From: an uncultured Clostridia bacterium
GTDB lineage: Bacteria > Bacillota > Clostridia > Christensenellales > Borkfalkiaceae
DNA: 64,000 nucleotides
Reading direction: 5' to 3'
NCBI GenBank assembly: GCA_944327625.1
Contig: CALVHL010000025.1
Coordinates: forward strand, 19,648 to 83,647
The position numbers and the translations under genes were made by a program. Below the pieces are notes generated by a model that made no database searches, was not told the DNA's origin, and was given only the letters and a program-made list of their open reading frames with translations. Of the stretch, positions 6,117 through 56,163 are shown piece by piece (the first letter of the stretch is position 1; each line of letters starts with the position of its first letter).

Positions 6117-7658
6117 TCAGGCAATTGTCAGCTTATCGCACTTCTTTTTGATTATCTTGTCGCCCTCTACGCCCTCGAAAGTGACGTTTTTGAGCGTAAG
6201 ACTTTCGACGTTGTCGACGTAGATGCCTTCCTTGCAGTAATCTCTGACAAATTCGAGCATTGCGGGCTTGAAGGGCTTTGCGTCCTGCTTGAACGAGAAG
6301 GAGACGTTTTCAAGCACTATCTCCTTGACGGGCTGTTCGACGAGACCGTCGAAATATGCGCACATACACTCGCAATCGACGCACTCTATGTCCCTGAAAT
6401 GGAACCTGCCCATATACGGCGTGTCGTCGCCGACGGGGTGCGGCTCTCTCGAATAGACGTATTCGGTATGTCCGTCCGGATCGCAGAAATAATACATATT
6501 GATGACGAGCGGGGTGATGACGTTCTCCATTTTGATATTTTCAAAGAGTACGCCGTCGATTATGCAGTCCTTGCCCCTGCCGCGCCTCGACTTAATCCTC
6601 AGCCCCCTGTCGGTGTGTCTGAATACGCACTGGCAGACGGTCAGATTCTTTACGCCGCCCGAAATTTCGCTGCCCAGCACTATCGCGCCGTGTCCGTCGC
6701 GGAACAGGTCGTTCCTTATGGTGTGGTGGTTTGCGGGAGTCTTGTACTTCGCACCCATGTAGAGCTTGCCCGATTTGAGCGCGACGCAGTCGTCGCCCAC
6801 CGAGAATATGCAGCCGACTATCTCGACGTTGTCGCAGCTCTCGGGATCGAGCCCGTCGGTATTGGGACCGGTGTACGGGTTCTGCACCCTTATGTCGTAG
6901 AAGCCGAGGTTATTCGAGAAGAAGGGGTGCAGGTTCCACGCCGCCGAGTTCTTGCAGGTTACGCCGTGGAATACGACGTTTTCGCACTTGTTGAGCGTCA
7001 CCAGCCTCGGACGGGCGACCGCCCTGCCCTTGGGCGTTGCCCACCACGTCGATTTGTCGGCGTTGCCGTTGATTGCGCCCTCGCCGATAATCCTGATATT
7101 CTTCTGCTTGTACGCCGAAACAAAGGATTGGTGACAGGGGTGAGGGTTGCCCTCCCACGTCGCAAGCACTTCCTCCGTACCGTCGTCGTGCTCTATCTTG
7201 GCGGGAACGTAGGGATAGTGCTCCTCGACTATGTCGCCGAGCAGTTCGCCGCCCTTGTATATCTCGATAGTTATGTCCGAACGAAGCACTATCGGACGAA
7301 CGTAATAACTGCCCTCGGGTATGATTACTCTGCCGCCTTTGGGGCAACTGTCTATCGCCATCTGAACGTAATAGGTATCGTCCGAAACGCCGTCGCCCTT
7401 TGCGCCTAAATCGCGGACGTTGACCGTGCCGCTCTCCTTTTCGGTGCGGAAGGTCATAGTGTAGCCGTCGAGCGTCGTTCCGACGGTATATTGGGTGTCG
7501 GGGGTGAGGTTAAAGAGCGAAAATACGTTACAATCCTTCTCCTCCCCCGTCTTTTTGCCGCCAAGAAGCACCGTATATTTTTCGGGGCTGTAATAGGCGT
7601 TGTCATTTTCAAGCTCGAAACAAGCCGAAGTGCTTGAAACAAACAGCTTTTTAAACAC
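6117..7658 (-). CDS. GH28 (exo-)polygalacturonase
   Basis: The four GH28 signatures are present: NTDGLDP, GDDCVALKSG, GHGAIVLGSE and RGLRIKS. GTG start at 7656-7658, 6 nt after AAGGAGGAG. Confidence 0.9.
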   Translation of the reverse strand: MFKKLFVSSTSACFELENDNAYYSPEKYTVLLGGKKTGEEKDCNVFSLFNLTPDTQYTVGTTLDGYTMTFRTEKESGTVNVRDLGAKGDGVSDDTYYVQMAIDSCPKGGRVIIPEGSYYVRPIVLRSDITIEIYKGGELLGDIVEEHYPYVPAKIEHDDGTEEVLATWEGNPHPCHQSFVSAYKQKNIRIIGEGAINGNADKSTWWATPKGRAVARPRLVTLNKCENVVFHGVTCKNSAAWNLHPFFSNNLGFYDIRVQNPYTGPNTDGLDPESCDNVEIVGCIFSVGDDCVALKSGKLYMGAKYKTPANHHTIRNDLFRDGHGAIVLGSEISGGVKNLTVCQCVFRHTDRGLRIKSRRGRGKDCIIDGVLFENIKMENVITPLVINMYYFCDPDGHTEYVYSREPHPVGDDTPYMGRFHFRDIECVDCECMCAYFDGLVEQPVKEIVLENVSFSFKQDAKPFKPAMLEFVRDYCKEGIYVDNVESLTLKNVTFEGVEGDKIIKKKCDKLTIA

Positions 7659-8385
7659 TTGCGTTCTCCTCCTTAATCTTTCTGTGCCGTCTGACGAGGT
7701 ATACTATCAGATCCTTTATTCCGATGAAAATCATATCGGCTATGAAGCAGAATACTCCGTAGAGCAGCGGCTCGACGCCGACGTTTATGTTTGCTCCGCC
7801 CTCCGTTCCCTTAATGACGTCGATGAGCAGATTGAGCCCCGTATACATATAGTTTACGACCAATACGACGACCATATAGTACGCCACGTTGGCAAAGAAC
7901 GTCCAGAATTTTTTGAACGGGAAGGGGAACATCATATAGTTGTCGTATTCCCTGTCGGACGACTGGAAATAGCGCATCGCTGGGTTGACGAGCAGGTCGA
8001 CGACTATGCCGAGCACCACACCTGTCAGCAACATACGGTTTTCGTCGTTGGTTATTATGCTGCCCAACCCCATGCCTATGAGGTAGCACACCATTCCCGC
8101 AAACCAGAACTTGATGACGAACGCCTTGATGAACGTCGGCACCCTCGACAGTCTGTCGAGTTTGTAGGGGTTGAACTCCTTATCCTTGCCGCGCGTCTTG
8201 TATTCGCGCTCCACGCCCTGTTCGGCGGCTTCCGTGCCTATGCACTCCTCAATGTTATAGCTTATTTCCTTCTGTTCGGTCGGGGTTTCGTTTTTGAGAA
8301 TGGATACCAGCTCGTCTACCTGGTCGACGCGCAGGTCATAATAATTCTCTATATTTGTCTCTTTATGTTTCTTTTTCTTTGACAT
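7651..8385 (-). CDS. hypothetical polytopic membrane protein (charged N-terminal domain plus about 4 TM helices)
   Basis: The ORF overlaps the GH28 start by 8 nt (coupled). I chose the ATG at 8383-8385. The track start at 8439 is a TTG, and neither start has a clear RBS. I recognised no family motif. Confidence 0.55.
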   Translation of the reverse strand: MSKKKKHKETNIENYYDLRVDQVDELVSILKNETPTEQKEISYNIEECIGTEAAEQGVEREYKTRGKDKEFNPYKLDRLSRVPTFIKAFVIKFWFAGMVCYLIGMGLGSIITNDENRMLLTGVVLGIVVDLLVNPAMRYFQSSDREYDNYMMFPFPFKKFWTFFANVAYYMVVVLVVNYMYTGLNLLIDVIKGTEGGANINVGVEPLLYGVFCFIADMIFIGIKDLIVYLVRRHRKIKEENASV

Positions 8386-19065: not shown

Positions 19066-19263
19066 GGTCTTAATTCTCCTTGTTATAAAAAATTTATAAC
19101 TCGGGAAGTGGTAACGCCGCACAGGGCTTTCGCCCTTTCGGCTGCCTGCTTTCTTCGTTCACTTTATATATAACACACGAAAGGGCGTTTTAAACGCTTC
19201 GTAAAATATTTTTTAATCGGCGCACCCCTTCGCGGCGGACGATTATATAATAGTGAAAAGAGA

Positions 19264-19296
19264 GCGGCGGCAGAAAAATTTTTTTCTGCCGCCGCG
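19264..19296. terminator. hairpin terminator (usable in both directions) just after the stop of 19301-20695
   Basis: The stem-loop is gcggcggcag-aaaaattttttt-ctgccgccgc, with T-rich runs on both sides. Confidence 0.6.
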
Positions 19297-22697: not shown

Positions 22698-23918
22698 TTA
22701 GCCAAGAATCTTGGAAACGACGCCGGAACCAACCGTTCTGCCGCCTTCGCGGATAGCGAACTTGAGCTTTTCTTCAACTGCAACGGGCTTGATGAGCTCG
22801 ACAGTGATGGTGACGTGGTCGCCGGGCATAACCATTTCGGTGCCTTCGGGAAGGTTGATCGAACCGGTTACGTCGGTCGTTCTGATGAAGAACTGAGGAC
22901 GATAGTGGTTGAAGAAAGGAGTGTGACGTCCGCCTTCCTCTGCTTTAAGAACGTAAACCTGAGCTTCAAACTTGGTTGCGGTCTTAACGGTGCCGGGCTT
23001 AGCGAGAACCTGTCCCTTTTCGATACCCTTCCTGTCGATACCACGAAGGAGTGCGCCGATGTTGTAGCCTGCGATAGCTTCGTCAACGCTCTTGTGGAAC
23101 ATTTCGAGACCGGTGATGGTCGTGCCGACGGGCTTGTCGATAAGGCCAACGATTTCTGCGGGATCGCCGACGTGAGCTACGCCTCTCTCTACACGACCGG
23201 TAGCAACGGTGCCACGGCCGGAGATGGTGAATACGTCCTCGACGGGAAGAAGGAAGGGCTTATCGGTGTCTCTCTGAGGGGTAGGAATATACTCGTCGAT
23301 GATGTTCATGAGCTCAAGAATGCACTGGCATTCGGGAGCTGCAAGAACCTCTGCATCGGAAGCGCCGGAGGTAGCCTTTTCAAGTGCTTTGAGTGCGGAA
23401 CCACGGATGATGGGGGTGGTGTCGCCGGGGAAGCCATAGCTCGAAAGGGTGTCTCTGATTTCCATTTCAACGAGTTCGAGAAGTTCGGGATCGTCCATCT
23501 GGTCGCACTTGTTGAGGAATACTACGATGTAGGGAACGCCAACCTGACGGGCAAGGAGAATGTGCTCCTTGGTCTGGGGCATGGGACCGTCGGTTGCTGC
23601 AACGACGAGGATTGCGCCGTCCATCTGAGCTGCGCCGGTGATCATGTTCTTGACATAGTCAGCGTGGCCCGGGCAGTCAACGTGTGCATAGTGACGCTTG
23701 CCGGTTTCATACTCTACGTGAGCGGTGTTTATTGTGATACCACGAGCCTTCTCTTCGGGAGCCTTATCGATTTCGTCGTATCTCATCTTCTGTGCCTGAC
23801 CCTTGCATGCCATAACCATTGTGATAGCTGCGGTCAGAGTGGTCTTGCCGTGGTCAACGTGGCCGATAGTGCCGATGTTAACGTGGGGCTTGCTGTTGTC
23901 GTACTTAGCCTTTGCCAT
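22698..23918 (-). CDS. tuf: translation elongation factor Tu
   Basis: [17 protein letters not shown] and NKCD G-motifs. 406 aa. Confidence 0.98.
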
Positions 23919-24032
23919 TTTAATTTCTCCTATTATTTTTTATAAAATGATAACTTACGCCTTGTAAGGCGTCGCAGCTATCCTTACGTCAATTTGGGGC
24001 TGCAATAATTTTTCGCCTAATGCGTTAAAATT

Positions 24033-24061
24033 ATTATATATTAAAAATTTTAAAAACACAA
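24033..24061 (-). promoter_or_regulatory. candidate tuf-proximal sigma-A promoter
   Basis: The minus strand reads TTGTGT-N17-TATAAT. The region is AT-rich, so this could be a chance match. Confidence 0.35.
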
Positions 24062-24094
24062 TTATTTTGACGTATGTTTTTAAAATTTTAGCCT

Positions 24095-24864
24095 TTTCGT
24101 AATTTTGTCGCTTAGTGACAGCGACAAAATTGACGAGGCTTAGCGGCTCTGCCGCTCTTGCCGCGACATTTTTTATTGCTCTCGATTATGAGAAGTCGCG
24201 GCAATTCACACCGCTGAGGTCGCAAGCGACTATTTGAGTGCGCTGGCGCAGGGAAACCCTGCTTGCGCCGCTAATTTATGTTTCGTAAATTTGTTTTCTG
24301 GTGACGAAAACAAATTTGACGATTTGAGGGCGTTGCCCTCGGCGGCGCAACCCTCAGCGCTCTCCATTCATTTAGTTGCGCCGCCTTCACCTACTGAGGT
24401 GGCGAAGCCACAAATGTGGTGCGCGGGCGCAAAAGCGTGGTTTTGCTTGCGCCGTTAGTTTTTTGTTTCGTAATTTTGTCGCTTAGTGACAGCGACAAAA
24501 TTGACGAGGCTTAGCGGCTCTGCCGCTCTTGCCGCGACATTTTTTATTGCTCTCGATTATGAGAAGTCGCGGCAATTCACACCGCTGAGGTCGCAAGCGA
24601 CTATTTGAGTGCGCTGGCGCAGGGAAACCCTGCTTGCGCCGCTAATTTATGTTTCGTAAATTTGTTTTCTGGTGACGAAAACAAATTTGACGATTTGAGG
24701 GCGTTGCCCTCGGCGGCGCAACCCTCAGCGCTCTCCATTCATTTAGTTGCTCCGCCTTCACCTACTGCCCGCCCGACGAAGTCGGTCGCACGAAGCGAAA
24801 GCGCAGCAGGTGTAGGTATGCACAAATGATGTGAAAGACCAAAAAGCGTGGTTTTTGGTCTTTC
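24095..24864 (+). repeat. four head-to-tail copies of a ~180-nt multi-hairpin element (E1 24095-24270, E2 24281-24454, E3 24466-24641, E4 24652-24864)
   Basis: 24095-24396 equals 24466-24767 with one mismatch (offset 371 bp). Each copy has the same ordered hairpins, with conserved linkers and different but complementary stems. Details are in the findings. Confidence 0.9.
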
Positions 24865-24920
24865 CGTGAATTATTCGGAAGCAGACCGCCTTAACAGGAA
24901 AATCCTGCTTTATTTATTAC

Positions 24921-27029
24921 TTAGTTATTCTTCTTAGCTCTGTCGCCTATTACCTTGTCGGCTACGGACTTGGGAACTTCGGAATAATGATCGAACTGCA
25001 TAGTGAACTGACCGCGTCCCTGAGTTCTCGAACGGAGGTCGGTAGCATAGCCGAACATCTCTGCAAGAGGAACTTCTGCGTCGACTACCTTTGCGCCTGC
25101 CCTGTCATCGGTGGAGATGATGGTGCCGCGCCTTGCGGTTACGTTACCCATTATATCGCCGAAATAATCGTCGGGGGTGATGACCTCTACCTTCATTATG
25201 GGCTCGAGGAGTACGGGCTTAGCCCTGGTCATGCCGTCCTTGAACGCCATAGAGCCTGCGATCTGGAATGCCATTTCGGACGAGTCGACCTCGTGATAGC
25301 TTCCGTCGTAAACCTGTACCTTGAAGTCTACCATTTCATAGCCTGCAAGGAAGCCGTTCTTTGCCGCGCCCTGAATACCCTTGTCGATTGCGGGGATATA
25401 TTCCTTGGGAATAGAGCCGCCGACGGTGAGGTCTTCAAACGAATATCCGCTGCCGGGTTCGCCGGGAATGAGGTGAATTTTGCAGTGACCGTACTGACCT
25501 TTACCACCCGACTGACGCTTGTACATACCCTCTGCGTCGCAAGCCTGACGGAACGTCTCTCTGTATGCAACTTGGGGTGCGCCGACGTTTGCCTCTACCT
25601 TGAATTCGCGCAGAAGTCTGTCGACGATGATGTCGAGGTGAAGTTCGCCCATGCCCGCGATGATGGTCTGTCCCGTTTCCTGATCGGTGTAGGTCTTGAA
25701 CGTGGGATCTTCTTCGGCGAGCTTGATGAGCGCCATGGTCATCTTCTCCTGACCTGCCTTGGTCTTGGGCTCTATCGAGAGCTGAATGACGGGATCGGAG
25801 AAGGTCATCTGTTCGAGTATTATAGGATGAGCTTCGTCGCAGAGCGTGTCACCCGTCGTCGTGTCTTTAAGACCGACTATCGCACAGATGTCGCCCGAAT
25901 AGATTTCGGGGATTTCCATACGGGTATTGGCGTGCATCTGCACGAGACGGCCAACCCTCTCCTTCTTGCCCTTCGTGGAGTTGTACACGTAGGAACCTGC
26001 GGAGAGCTTGCCGGAATAAGCTCTGAAATATGCAAGACGGCCGACGAAGGGATCGGTTGCGATCTTGAATGCGAGACCTGCGAAGGGTTCGTCGTCGGAG
26101 GTCTTTCTCTCCTCCTCTGCGCCCGTGTCGGGGTTTACACCCTTTACGTGGTCTACGTCGACGGGGGAAGGCAGATAGTCGATGACTGCGTCGAGCAGCA
26201 TCTGAACGCCCTTGTTCTTATAGGAAGAACCGCAGAGCACGGGGGTTGCCTTCATTGCTATGGTAGCCTTGCGAAGTCCCTGACGGATTTCGTCGGGGGT
26301 GAGCTCCATGGTGTCGAGGAACTTCATCATGAGTTCGTCGTCGCCCTCTGCCGCAGCCTCCATTACTGCAAGGTGCGCTTCTTCGGCGGCAGCCTTCATA
26401 TCCTCGGGAATTTCTGCCCTGTGGTACTGCTTGCCGTCGTCGCTGTCGTATATTTCGGCATTCATCTCGATGAGGTCGACGATGCCTCTGAAAGTATCTT
26501 CCTTACCGATGGGAAGTTCGATGGGAACGGGGTTGGCGTTGAGCCTCTCCTTCATCATCTTGACGGCCCTTTCAAAGTTAGCGCCGTTGATGTCCATCTT
26601 GTTGACGTAAGCTATGCGGGGAACCTTGTACTTGTCCGCCTGACGCCATACGGTTTCGGACTGGGGCTCGACGCCGCCCTTAGCGCAGAAGGTTGCGACC
26701 GCGCCGTCGAGTACGCGGAGCGAACGCTCGACCTCAACGGTGAAGTCGACGTGGCCCGGGGTATCGATGATGTTGATGCGGCATTCGTCCTTCTTGGTTG
26801 CGCCCGACCTCGTCCAATGGCAGGTGGTTGCAGCCGAAGTTATGGTAATGCCTCTCTCCTGCTCCTGAACCATCCAGTCCATCGTCGCGGTGCCGTCGTG
26901 CGTTTCGCCTATCTTATGGTTAATACCGGTATAGTAGAGTATACGCTCGGTCGTCGTCGTCTTGCCGGCGTCGATGTGCGCCATTATACCGATATTTCTG
27001 GTATGCAATAAATCGTATTCTCTTGCCAT
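24921..27029 (-). CDS. fusA: translation elongation factor G
   Basis: [17 protein letters not shown] and NKMD motifs. 702 aa. Confidence 0.98.
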
Positions 27030-27041
27030 AGTTTACCTCAA

Positions 27042-27512
27042 TTAGAAACGGAAGTGAGCAAACGCCTTGTTTGCCTCTGCCATTCTGTGGGTATCTTCCT
27101 TCTTCTTTACCGCGCCGCCTGCGTTGTTGTACGCATCCATGAGTTCTGCGGCGAGCTTAGCGCTCATATCTCTTTCGGAACGCTTCCTCGTGCTGATGAC
27201 GAGCCAGCGGATAGCGAGAGTCTGACGGCGTTCGGGCCTGATTTCCATGGGCACCTGATAGTTTGCGCCGCCTACGCGCTTAGCCTTTACTTCGAGTACG
27301 GGCATGATGTTGTTGAGCGCCTGGTTGAATACGTCCATGGGCTCCTGTCCGAGCTTCTCGCTCGCGATTTTGAGTGCATCATAGACGATAGTCTGTGCCG
27401 TGCCGCGCTTGCCGTCATACATTATCTGGTTTACAAGCTTGGTGATTACCTTGCTGTTGTACACGGGATCGGGTAATACATCCCTCTTGGGGACGCTTCC
27501 TCTTCTGGGCAT
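27042..27512 (-). CDS. rpsG: 30S ribosomal protein S7
   Basis: 156 aa starting [20 protein letters not shown]... RBS AAGGAGG. Confidence 0.97.
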
Positions 27513-27680
27513 AATGTTATCCTCCTTCTGAATTTTTAAGGGTTAGACCTTAAATAAGCTATTGCTTGCCCCGCGCAAAAGTTTTTTCGGGGTAGCAAAT
27601 CTTCTCCGCAACGCAGTTGCGAATACTGCCTACTTTTATCGGCTAAGGGTAGATATATTCCGAAACAAGTAGGGTGTCTG

Positions 27681-27908
27681 TTTCGTAAATTTGTTTTCCG
27701 GTGACGAAAACAAATTTGACGAGTTTTGGAGGCTCTGCCTCCCTGCCCTCAATTATAAGGGCTCTCGCATTGCTCAATTGAGGGCATTCCCTCCGCTGAG
27801 GCGCAGGTATGCGCTGATTGAGTGCGCTGGCGCAAAATAGCGATTTTGCTTGCGCCGTGATTACTTTTCAGAAATGTTTGCGCATCTTAGCAAACAAAAT
27901 TTACGAAA
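27681..27908 (+). repeat. fifth copy of the multi-hairpin element (27681-27857) plus an inverted copy of its first module (27877-27908)
   Basis: The module order matches 24095-24270, but every stem sequence is different and complementary. The terminal TTTCGTAAATTTTG / CAAAATTTACGAAA pair forms inverted ends. Confidence 0.85.
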
Positions 27909-27915
27909 GTAGTTT

Positions 27916-28290
27916 TTAGGACTTAGGACGCTTTGCACCGTAACGCGAACGGGCCTGCTTTCTCTTGGAAACGCCTGCCGTATCGAGTGCGCCGCGCACG
28001 ATGTGGTAACGAACGCCGGGGAGGTCCTTAACTCTGCCGCCGCGGATGAGGACGGACGAGTGCTCCTGAAGGTTGTGGCCTTCGCCGGGAATATATACGG
28101 TACCTTCCTGCTTATTGGTAAGTCTTACCCTCGCGATCTTTCTGATTGCGGAGTTAGGCTTCTTGGGCGTCGTAGTGGTAACCGAGAGGCAGACGCCGCG
28201 CTTCTGGGGACAGTTGTCCAGAATGGGCGACTTGCTCTTGTATACCTGCTTTTCTCTGCCGTGCTTTATAAGCTGATTGATTGTGGGCAT
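27916..28290 (-). CDS. rpsL: 30S ribosomal protein S12
   Basis: 124 aa starting [14 protein letters not shown]... RBS AAGGAGGAG. Confidence 0.97.
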
Positions 28291-55720: not shown

Positions 55721-55860
55721 TATAGAGTTATCTCCTTGATTTTTTACCTTATTATTTCCGCCGCTCAACGCGGCTTTATTATTCTCTTTTCCCCGATTGA
55801 ACGGCACATATCCCCGCCCCAATCGGTTTTTTACAACCCTGCTTCCCAAATAATTATGTT

Positions 55861-56155
55861 GCGCAAGCAAAATCGCCATTTTGCGCCAGCGCACCGCATT
55901 TGTGGCTTCGCCACCTCGGTAGGTGAAGGCGGCGCAATTATTATATTTGAGAGCACTTTAAGATTGCGCCGCCGAGGACGAGGGCGGACTTCTCAAAATG
56001 TGCCTCGGCTTGGCACATTTTGCCGACCGAGATAAGTCCGACACATCAGGTCGTGGCGGACGATGACCGAGCAAGGCGTTGCCATTACGCCTTGCGAGAA
56101 AGCGCCCTCAACCTCGTCAAATTTGTTTTCGTCACCAGAAAACAAATTTACGAAA
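55861..56155 (-). repeat. sixth copy of the multi-hairpin element, on the opposite DNA strand to the str copies, with an expanded second hairpin
   Basis: The minus strand starts GTTTCGTAAATTTGTTTTCTGGTGACGAAAACAAATTTGACGAGG. It ends ...GGCGGCGCAA-N-TTGCGCCGCCTTCACCTACCGAGGTGGCGAAGCCACAAATGCGGTGCGCTGGCGCAAAATGGCGATTTTGCTTGCGC. Confidence 0.85.
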
Positions 56156-56163
56156 CCCAAGGC

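Follow-up and report, generated by a model that had tools for sequence, protein, structure and literature searches.

Structured palindromic repeats dispersed between genes are already known as a kind (PMC10969869). We describe here a family of such repeats from an uncultured Clostridia bacterium (Borkfalkiaceae), based on a stretch of 64,000 nt from contig CALVHL010000025.1 (positions 19,648 to 83,647; hereafter, the window), in which four head-to-tail units lie in the spacer between fusA and tuf, the genes for EF-G and EF-Tu. Unit size ranges from 185 to 230 bp across the family, every copy is intergenic, and each unit is a string of five independent hairpins (H1 to H5). We lean towards reading the unit as a dispersed, non-coding palindromic DNA repeat similar to the REP, BIME and BOX elements, large and modular, and not as a strand-specific RNA gene. 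The family is absent from Rfam and we found no description of it; what is new about it is its size, its modularity and the degree of covariation in its stems.

The REP and BIME elements of enterobacteria are extragenic hairpin palindromes between the genes of operons, often directly after stop codons and in both orientations; they form mosaic arrays of a few alternative stem types joined by conserved linkers, are lineage-specific and vary in copy number between strains. All of this also applies to our family. However, a REP is one imperfect hairpin of ~35 nt, whereas the unit described here spans 185-230 nt, with five ordered hairpins and optional modules; it has no GTAG-type 5′ motif, no gene for RAYT, the Y1 HUH transposase that goes with REP elements, was seen in the available sequence, and the copy number is apparently in the tens per genome rather than in the hundreds. 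REP elements of E. coli also lie near stop codons and gene ends.

In its architecture, the family can be likened to BOX of Streptococcus pneumoniae (boxA-boxB(n)-boxC) and other MITE-type repeats of Firmicutes (RUP, SPRITE), which are modular, structured and intergenic with variable internal modules; they cluster, insert next to one another and have no transposase of their own (PMC10969869), and our family behaves alike. The modules of BOX are conserved in sequence, while here stems are replaced with complementarity kept, and whole units are repeated in tandem. [quoted passage not shown] Unlike MITEs, the units have terminal inverted repeats of at most ~7 nt, no target-site duplications and no near-identical dispersed copies, and no related insertion sequence was found.

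Two further systems invite comparison. In the attC sites of integrons, the stems covary freely while the geometry, an extrahelical base and short boxes are kept, and the sites follow stop codons and are arrayed, much as our units are. Such sites are recognised as structure rather than sequence. In contrast to attC, H1 lacks the RYYYAAC/GTTRRRY boxes on direct reading, there are no integron integrase or cassettes, the neighbours are core housekeeping genes, and H1 is accompanied by four more hairpins that are conserved. The single-strand origins (sso) and origins of transfer (oriT) of rolling-circle or mobilizable plasmids are multi-hairpin regions of single-stranded DNA (ssDNA), 150-300 nt in size, with motifs that are short, unpaired and conserved amid variable stems, and some copies of our repeat stand beside a Mob_Pre gene; yet sso and oriT are single-copy, orientation-dependent plasmid functions, whereas the repeat is multi-copy, chromosomal, present in both orientations and absent from the plasmids and phages searched.

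The unit and its array between fusA and tuf

A preliminary description of this DNA had reported a 1002-bp fusA-tuf spacer with four head-to-tail units, and six units in the window. The open reading frame (ORF) coordinates and an unfiltered search of the whole window with R1, the covariance model made for the family, bear this out: the model finds exactly six copies. In relatives without the element, the fusA-tuf spacer measures 174-201 nt. The features of the array and its borders are:

22698-23918, minus strand: tuf
23919-24920: fusA-tuf intergenic spacer, 1002 nt (from ORF coordinates and sequence)
23919-24092, minus strand: conserved tuf promoter TTGTGT-17-TATAAT and structured 5′ untranslated region (5′UTR), outside the repeat
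24093-24281, plus strand: unit E1 (177.7 bits, E=1e-42), with H1 at 24097-24136, H2 at 24142-24156, H3 at 24158-24204, the linker TTCACACCGCTGAGG, H4 at 24220-24229 and H5 at 24240-24268
24282-24463, plus strand: unit E2 (159.5 bits, E=4e-38)
24464-24652, plus strand: unit E3 (178.9 bits, E=6e-43)
24654-24864, plus strand: unit E4, a long variant (85.2 bits, E=1e-19)
24864-24884, plus strand: conserved 3′ tail CCGTGAATTATTCGGAAGCAG of the terminal unit
24885-24911, plus strand: decayed unit remnant CAGGAAAATCCTG (from repeat families)
24921-27029, minus strand: fusA

All the hairpins listed in the preliminary description are present, by sequence reading and by the repeat finder. H1 has 16-17 bp, with a TCGT/ACGA base, a bulged G or C in the 3′ arm and an upper stem of 12 bp (arms 24101-24112/24120-24131 in E1; 24287-24298/24306-24317 in E2); its loop reads YRGTGAC or GAGCTGAC. 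Its variable core, earlier given as 6 nt per arm, is actually 4 nt, to which the bulged G of the 3′ arm and the 4-bp TCGT/ACGA base have to be added. H2 is a short hairpin that is expanded in some copies to a branched insert of ~120 nt. H3 is a hairpin of 9-11 bp (arms 24158-24167/24195-24204 in E1; 24341-24351/24375-24385 in E2), the large loop of which retains GGGCTCTC or GGGCACAC. The linker TTCAC...CTGAGG, in some copies with a 40-nt insert, leads to H4 (4-5 bp), which is followed by the linker CAAATnGRGTGCGC, the interrupted helix of H5 (~10-13 bp) and an AT-rich tail. A single unit folds far better than shuffled sequences (z=-6.55 as DNA, plus strand; z=-5.89 as RNA, minus strand).

E2 carries other stem alleles than E1 in all five hairpins. 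E3 is a copy of E1 (99% identical) within a 371-bp duplication: the repeat finder has 24095-24394 return at 24466-24765, at a spacing of 371 nt and with 299 of 300 positions identical, and the single mismatch between the duplicated segments is G24381 versus T24752 on direct reading, just as a near-perfect internal duplication with one mismatch had been proposed. Tandem Repeats Finder left the array unreported, because the 371-nt period is present in fewer than two copies and the units are too divergent. In E4, the 5′ half matches E2, hairpin 4 is an alternative one, and a 13-bp alternative H5 occupies 24833-24864 (arms 24833-24845/24852-24864). Moreover, an optional insert of 40 nt (CCCGCCCGACGAAGTCGGTCGCACGAAGCGAAAGCGCAGC, 24768-24807) separates the CTG from the AGG of the linker. 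The swap of the last stem, as first described, is thus real, although it is not the only change in E4. The insert and the H5 allele recur in L006, L007, L010, L017 and L019 (L-numbers refer to the related metagenome-assembled genome (MAG) and metagenome loci that we compared with the window).

The tail CCGTGAATTATTCGGAAGCAG also follows the terminal units in E6 (see below), L005, L016, L018 and L059. The remnant behind it consists of a piece resembling the end of H3 with TTCAC and of an H5-like hairpin, and abuts the fusA stop codon. At its other end, the array begins 2-9 nt from the edge of the tuf promoter/5′UTR region, which is near-identical in L001, L009, L012 and L013 and recognisable in L141-L144. 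The tuf promoter and 5′UTR are kept in at least six related genomes. Since tuf has a conserved promoter of its own, its expression is independent of read-through across the 1-kb array. The spacer would be a local array at an insertion hot spot, with the 371-bp duplication (E1-E2 giving E3-E4) as its latest enlargement.

Stem covariation and strand symmetry

The main pair counts come from a model-based alignment of 139 distinct units. Standard pairs make up 95.2% of the cells, against 67.5% in shuffled alignments (none of 500 reached the observed value) and 39-56% when the partners are slid. All 44 pairs are changed on both sides (44/44), far above shuffles, with a covariation score of 0.572 versus 0.161, and the pairs of H1 and H3 typically occur as three to five Watson-Crick types. 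As a control blind to structure, a MAFFT alignment of 52 units analysed with RNAalifold recovers H2, H3 and H5; of the 23 pairs, 19 have changes in both partners. In H1, covariation is evident by eye. The loop and linker motifs are more conserved than the stems, even where stems are wholly replaced. The ordered architecture with conserved loops and linkers and with differing complementary stems had been taken as the mark of a selected structure, and the many additional copies uphold that view, covariation included.

A scan of all column pairs yielded no pseudoknot, junction or long-range helix with convincing covariation: the five hairpins are independent of each other. In the same scan, pairing of the 3′ arm of H3 or the 5′ arm of H2 with the downstream linker gave no extra covarying helix, and a CACC/GGTG helix around H4 gave no convincing covariation. 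We also rejected a conserved G·U in H5 proposed by RNAalifold, as variant H5 alleles support another register.

Covariation of this sort is what a structured RNA would give, and the preliminary description had spoken of "RNA or ssDNA". The two can be told apart by strand, as G·T is a wobble pair if the plus reading is the functional one and A·C is a wobble on its complement. Among ~5250 paired cells, of which ~5000 are Watson-Crick, we counted 135 G·T and 107 A·C; single mismatches within Watson-Crick helices, counted independently, were G·T in 2 cases and A·C in 13. With respect to the flanking genes, 47 units are sense, 38 antisense, 16 convergent and 16 divergent. The units of the str operon in the window are antisense to it, as was first noted. 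In sense units, where the flanking genes are co-directional, G·T stands to A·C as 51 to 45, and in antisense units as 34 to 30, so that the wobble balance does not follow the transcribed strand. Promoter-like and terminator-like sites in the array showed no excess over shuffles. From an RNA that functions on one strand, one would expect far more G·U than A·C and a constant orientation; what we observe is expected of a DNA palindrome whose complementarity is maintained as such. The RNA half of the earlier proposal is thus unsupported, for lack of a G·U excess, of a uniform orientation, of higher-order covariation and of a promoter or terminator; the DNA half fits better.

In the mechanism we propose, the constraint would act on DNA, with every stem kept Watson-Crick complementary, so that either strand can extrude it. 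Once the DNA is extruded or single-stranded, a protein would presumably read the motifs conserved in loops and linkers (the H1 loop, the H3 loop, TTCAC and CAAATnGRGTGCGC), and we infer that an enzyme or binding protein acting in trans on DNA recognises the folded element. The repeat, as a single copy or in arrays, would occupy short intergenic gaps that are dispensable, whichever its orientation. Its copies would turn over at the level of DNA, by insertion or replacement at hot spots, by exchange of modules in the linkers and by unequal recombination or duplication in arrays; spread presumably involves transposition-like events, beyond recombination alone.

Dispersal, insertion sites and variation between strains

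An exact H1 pattern gave 17 matches on many contigs, from only three GTDB MAGs, all of them "uncultured Clostridia bacterium". A pattern for the 3′ module returned 117 metagenome loci, ~78 of which have true units with the same order of five hairpins; many of these ~78 belong to a broader subfamily of 200-230 nt in which hairpin order and linker motifs are the same and the stems are different, tandem arrays also occurring there. Across 828 kb of loci from related MAGs and metagenomes, the covariance model matches 174 times at E ≤ 1e-5. No copies were found in 72,556 plasmids, 50,697 phage records and viral contigs. Rfam scans at the gathering score had no match in the whole window and seven loci; a permissive scan of 23500-25500 reached 20 bits at best, against a gathering score of 60 (E=2), in line with the earlier remark that the element was not recognised as any named RNA family. 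A scan for tRNA and tmRNA found none.

Stem alleles recombine freely among copies, with breakpoints in the conserved linkers, and the closest relative of a unit is often located at another locus or in another genome: the best match of E6 is the nifS-nifU unit of another MAG (84%), and that of E1 a unit after pyrH in another MAG (80%). Truncated units and solo H1 hairpins occur; the fusA-tuf spacer of MAG CASEDP01 has a solo H1 only. Contigs encoding identical EF-G differ from each other. While L003 equals the window, L001 is without E1 and has three units in a spacer of 809 nt, and L002 has four units in which 3′ modules are swapped for other alleles. In L004 (58-243), also with identical EF-G, the rpsL-rpsG site holds a quite different unit (≤68% identity); the unit was replaced here between strains that are very close. 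Another short hairpin repeat, CAyTTCATAG-stem-nCACC-stem-GTG, lies beside or in the place of the 3′ modules of some units (L007:2370-2590; L010; L016:2226-2380), and a TTTTACATTCTACATTT motif follows many units of the broad family.

The neighbours of the units are unrelated housekeeping genes, such as those for S10, S12/S7, EF-G/EF-Tu, PyrH, IscS/IscU, pyruvate formate-lyase and AsnB/AsnS, and further RecR, RuvA, HisS, DinB and an ABC-F protein. Where the upstream gene is on the same strand, the H1 end lies -1 to 13 nt past its stop codon in 21 of 39 cases; in the opposite orientation, it is 0-10 nt from the reverse-complemented ribosome-binding site, near the start codon. In the str operon, an apparent gap of 167-178 nt between H1 and the start codon is filled by a conserved rpsG leader and by the tuf promoter/5′UTR, H1 being 2-10 nt from their edges. 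A riboswitch or leader function, suggested by H1 abutting ribosome-binding sites, was rejected since the downstream genes are functionally unrelated.

Relatives without the element were located through ribosomal protein S7. In L141 (94% S7 identity) and L144 (88%), the rpsL-rpsG spacers are 226 and 168 nt and the fusA-tuf spacers 201 and 174 nt, and no covariance-model match was found; such short spacers are the ancestral state. In L142 and L143 (94% S7), other, unrelated inverted-repeat elements occupy exactly both str-operon sites. These elements read AATTAAGAATTTAGAATTCAGAAT... / ...ATTCTACATTCTGCATTCTACATT and AATTGCGAATTGCGAATTGC (L142:4573-5003 and 7586-7871; L143:4729-5003). The comparison of L141-L144 identifies the two str-operon gaps as insertion hot spots. 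The dispensable target measures only some 10-30 nt, which explains much of the closeness to gene ends; in L009, there are only ~11 nt between the fusA stop codon and the conserved tuf promoter region.

The terminal ~57 nt of fusA, stop codon included, recur as duplicates beside inserted repeats, once in L012 (885-1420), three times in tandem in L013 (2430-2890) and once in L143 (7586-8152). It looks as if something integrates within the final codons of the gene and restores them; alternatively, the duplications may be an assembly artefact.

The remaining copies in the window and the genes around E5 are as follows:

27042-27512, minus strand: rpsG
27679-27868, plus strand: unit E5 in the rpsL-rpsG spacer (192.3 bits, E=3e-46)
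27869-27909, minus strand: partial inverted H1-type hairpin, TTTCGTAAATTTTGTTTGC-TAAGATG-CGCAAAC (from sequence)
27916-28290, minus strand: rpsL
55848-56157, minus strand: unit E6 (151 bits when joined)

The rpsL-rpsG spacer has 403 nt, versus 168-226 nt in relatives without the element. L009 has an orthologous unit to E5 (85% identity), and the sites in L141 and L144 are empty. The partial inverted H1 is located 7 nt past the rpsL stop codon, tail to tail with E5, and its allele also heads full units in L006 and L013. E6 begins 7-10 nt behind an asparagine synthase gene, counted from the stop codon, and is oriented like that gene; hairpin 2 of E6 holds the branched insert of ~120 nt (~55983-56103), which is also found in L010, L015 and L019. 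An empty site for E6 was sought in four strains, all of which carry E6. Both optional modules, of 40 nt and of ~120 nt, turn up within units at several loci and may themselves be small elements nested in the repeat. At 19256-19292, the H5 part of the model matches weakly, but the site is a bidirectional terminator of the ordinary kind (GCGGCGGCAGAAAAATTTTTTTCTGCCGCCGC, then a T run) and no unit. Upstream of rpsG, a leader of ~165 nt (27513-27678, minus strand; CCTACTTGTTTCGGAATATATC ... GGCAAGCAATAGCTTATTTAAGGT ... AAGGAGG) is conserved even in relatives with only 88% S7 identity. It matches no Rfam family at the gathering score and probably represents this lineage's autoregulatory S7 leader.

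A Mob_Pre relaxase gene stands beside the unit in four of the ~78 metagenome loci with true units (Pfam E=1e-44 to 1e-52), the unit always being on the strand opposite to mob. DUF6291 proteins occur near Mob_Pre and a tyrosine integrase in a related locus; these loci are integrative mobilizable elements. In L037, L088, L061 and L124, the unit is situated between an oriT-type hairpin (AAGTGTAG-TGAG-CTACACTT) and the ribosome-binding site of mob, whereas in L054 the same hairpin is followed directly by mob. The mobilizable elements extend over L037:2440-3790, L088:7530-8720, L054:738-1900, L067:1437-2900 and L049:2527-5354, and in L067 the oriT-type hairpin is repeated three times. The repeat therefore also enters mobile DNA, which does not make it the oriT. 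A dedicated link with Mob_Pre is weakened by the separate oriT-type hairpin and by L054, where there is no unit at that position. The preliminary description had held that decaying copies of a mobile repeat would not look like this. In fact, the repeat is dispersed, multi-copy, mosaic and variable between strains, it is found in mobilizable elements and it is absent from close relatives.

Alternative explanations and implications

Several observations weigh against a palindromic DNA repeat that spreads. No transposase, RAYT, integrase or reverse transcriptase is present among the genes of the window; in an all-versus-all clustering of 732 ORFs from ~1 Mb of loci, only housekeeping families recur and none resembles a transposase; and tblastn with IS200 and IS608 TnpA sequences gave nothing below E=1. 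We saw no short direct repeats, as target-site duplications would be, at the ends of units or arrays, and the only direct repeat of at least 11 nt across array flanks is the fusA 3′-end duplication in L012; the empty sites of relatives are too diverged for base-by-base alignment. The search for target-site duplications and for a RAYT/TnpA-type gene, already advised in the preliminary description, was thus negative in the window and the loci searched, though presence/absence polymorphism was seen. The terminal inverted repeat is weak, ~7 nt of (CTG)TTTCG versus GAAGCAG/GAAACAG, and confined to a narrow subfamily; of the traits of MITEs, small size, intergenic site and presence/absence polymorphism are there. 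Dispersed copies are 65-85% identical and none is near-identical apart from tandem duplicates, so that there is no sign of a recent burst of transposition. Some units are orthologous across species (rpsL-rpsG, 85%; nifS-nifU, 78%), and such long residence would also fit a host function. Furthermore, the pair counts rest on an alignment fitted to the model and on related copies, so that they are not independent events, and the strain differences stem from short-read metagenome assemblies, in which repeats of 185-371 bp can be mis-joined.

A host function could lie in RNA without regard to strand, the hairpins acting in the mRNA whichever way they are transcribed, as protectors of 3′ ends after stop codons, stabilisers of 5′ ends before ribosome-binding sites, or intercistronic processing or insulating sites, with the benefit to the RNA, and not recognition of the DNA, maintaining the stems. 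REP/BIME elements and the RNase III sites of phage T7 work as mRNA-level hairpins of this sort. REP-containing mRNAs are structured targets of RNase R and PNPase (PMC12320835). The position of H1 near same-strand stop codons or opposite-strand ribosome-binding sites would agree with such a role, and so would the symmetric arrangement in L018 (nifS stop codon, unit, inverted unit, nifU ribosome-binding site), the many copies inside operons of highly expressed genes and the fact that both strands are very stable as RNA folds. However, the surplus of G·U over A·C expected on the transcribed strand is missing in sense (51/45) and antisense (34/30) units alike, a role open to any stable hairpin leaves the conserved loops and linkers unexplained, and closeness to gene ends also follows from the very short dispensable spacers. 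We consider this account unlikely, albeit possible; an RNA role in either orientation could coexist with spread at the DNA level. Another rival is a strand-specific structured RNA of ~190 nt, small or cis-regulatory, that would be made from the plus strand antisense to the str operon. In its favour are the strong covariation of the five helices, conserved unpaired motifs and, in hairpin 2, G·T above A·C (63 versus 39), and it would be new since no known family matches. Overall, though, G·T is about equal to A·C, orientation is divided 47 to 38, the units have no flanking promoter or terminator, and the structure is a string of hairpins only, without junctions or pseudoknots. Optional modules of 40 and 120 nt, wholesale module swaps, truncated and solo-H1 copies, absence from relatives at 88-94% S7 identity and different units at one site in near-identical strains are equally at odds with it, and we judge it highly improbable.

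Among explanations at the level of DNA, the unit might be an ssDNA site for conjugative or rolling-circle functions, similar to oriT or sso, the chromosomal copies being orphan sites. The four Mob_Pre loci with their constant strand arrangement are consistent with this, and multiple hairpins, conserved unpaired motifs and little wobble suit an ssDNA signal. Two motifs may serve as leads only: AGTGCGC in the most conserved linker, which we take to be the core of MOBQ-type nick sites, and TAGCGA in some H5 loops, which presumably resembles the CS-6 motif of ssoA. Yet the mobilizable elements own a separate oriT-type hairpin, present in L054 without the unit, no match exists in the plasmid, phage and viral-contig collections, and dozens of copies between housekeeping genes in both orientations are unlike the distribution of an origin; this idea seems to us hardly probable at all. 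The units could also be old palindromes without function, the arms of which are kept complementary by intra-strand template switching during replication, a process that creates and maintains perfect hairpins (PMC8794818). The almost purely Watson-Crick, strand-symmetric stems and the replacement of whole stems with loops retained are what this would produce; neutral decay, however, would not leave loops and linkers better conserved than stems, and even very divergent subfamilies retain the order and geometry of the five hairpins along with the site of the H1 bulge. We hold the proposal to be very unlikely. A distinctly unlikely, more specific version of recognition in DNA would have the five-hairpin unit as the folded-DNA substrate of a putative enzyme (an HUH nuclease or relaxase, or a recombinase, as candidates), recognised by its shape and by short loop and linker motifs, as attC sites or REPs are. 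Cleavage or recombination would take place at H1, with its bulged stem of 17 bp and its conserved GNTGAC loop; arrays of the form (H1-body)n-H1 and solo copies of H1 would then be accounted for. If true, this would be a new structure-specific system of DNA mobilisation, with an unusually large and elaborate non-coding substrate.

On the reading as a palindromic DNA repeat that we favour, conserved linkers together with covarying stems are insufficient to call an RNA, as a family of DNA palindromes can give textbook covariation; only the tests of strand symmetry, namely, G·T versus A·C and orientation to transcription, separate the two, which matters for the automated discovery of non-coding RNAs in metagenomes. 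The repeats are also likely to break or mis-join short-read assemblies of these genomes. The family accounts for puzzling kilobase-long spacers between core genes and marks the insertion hot spots of the str operon. It adds a large, modular member with five hairpins to the class of REP, BIME and BOX elements, in a lineage of uncultured gut Clostridia without such annotation, and its conserved loop motifs provide a handle for finding the protein that reads the repeat.

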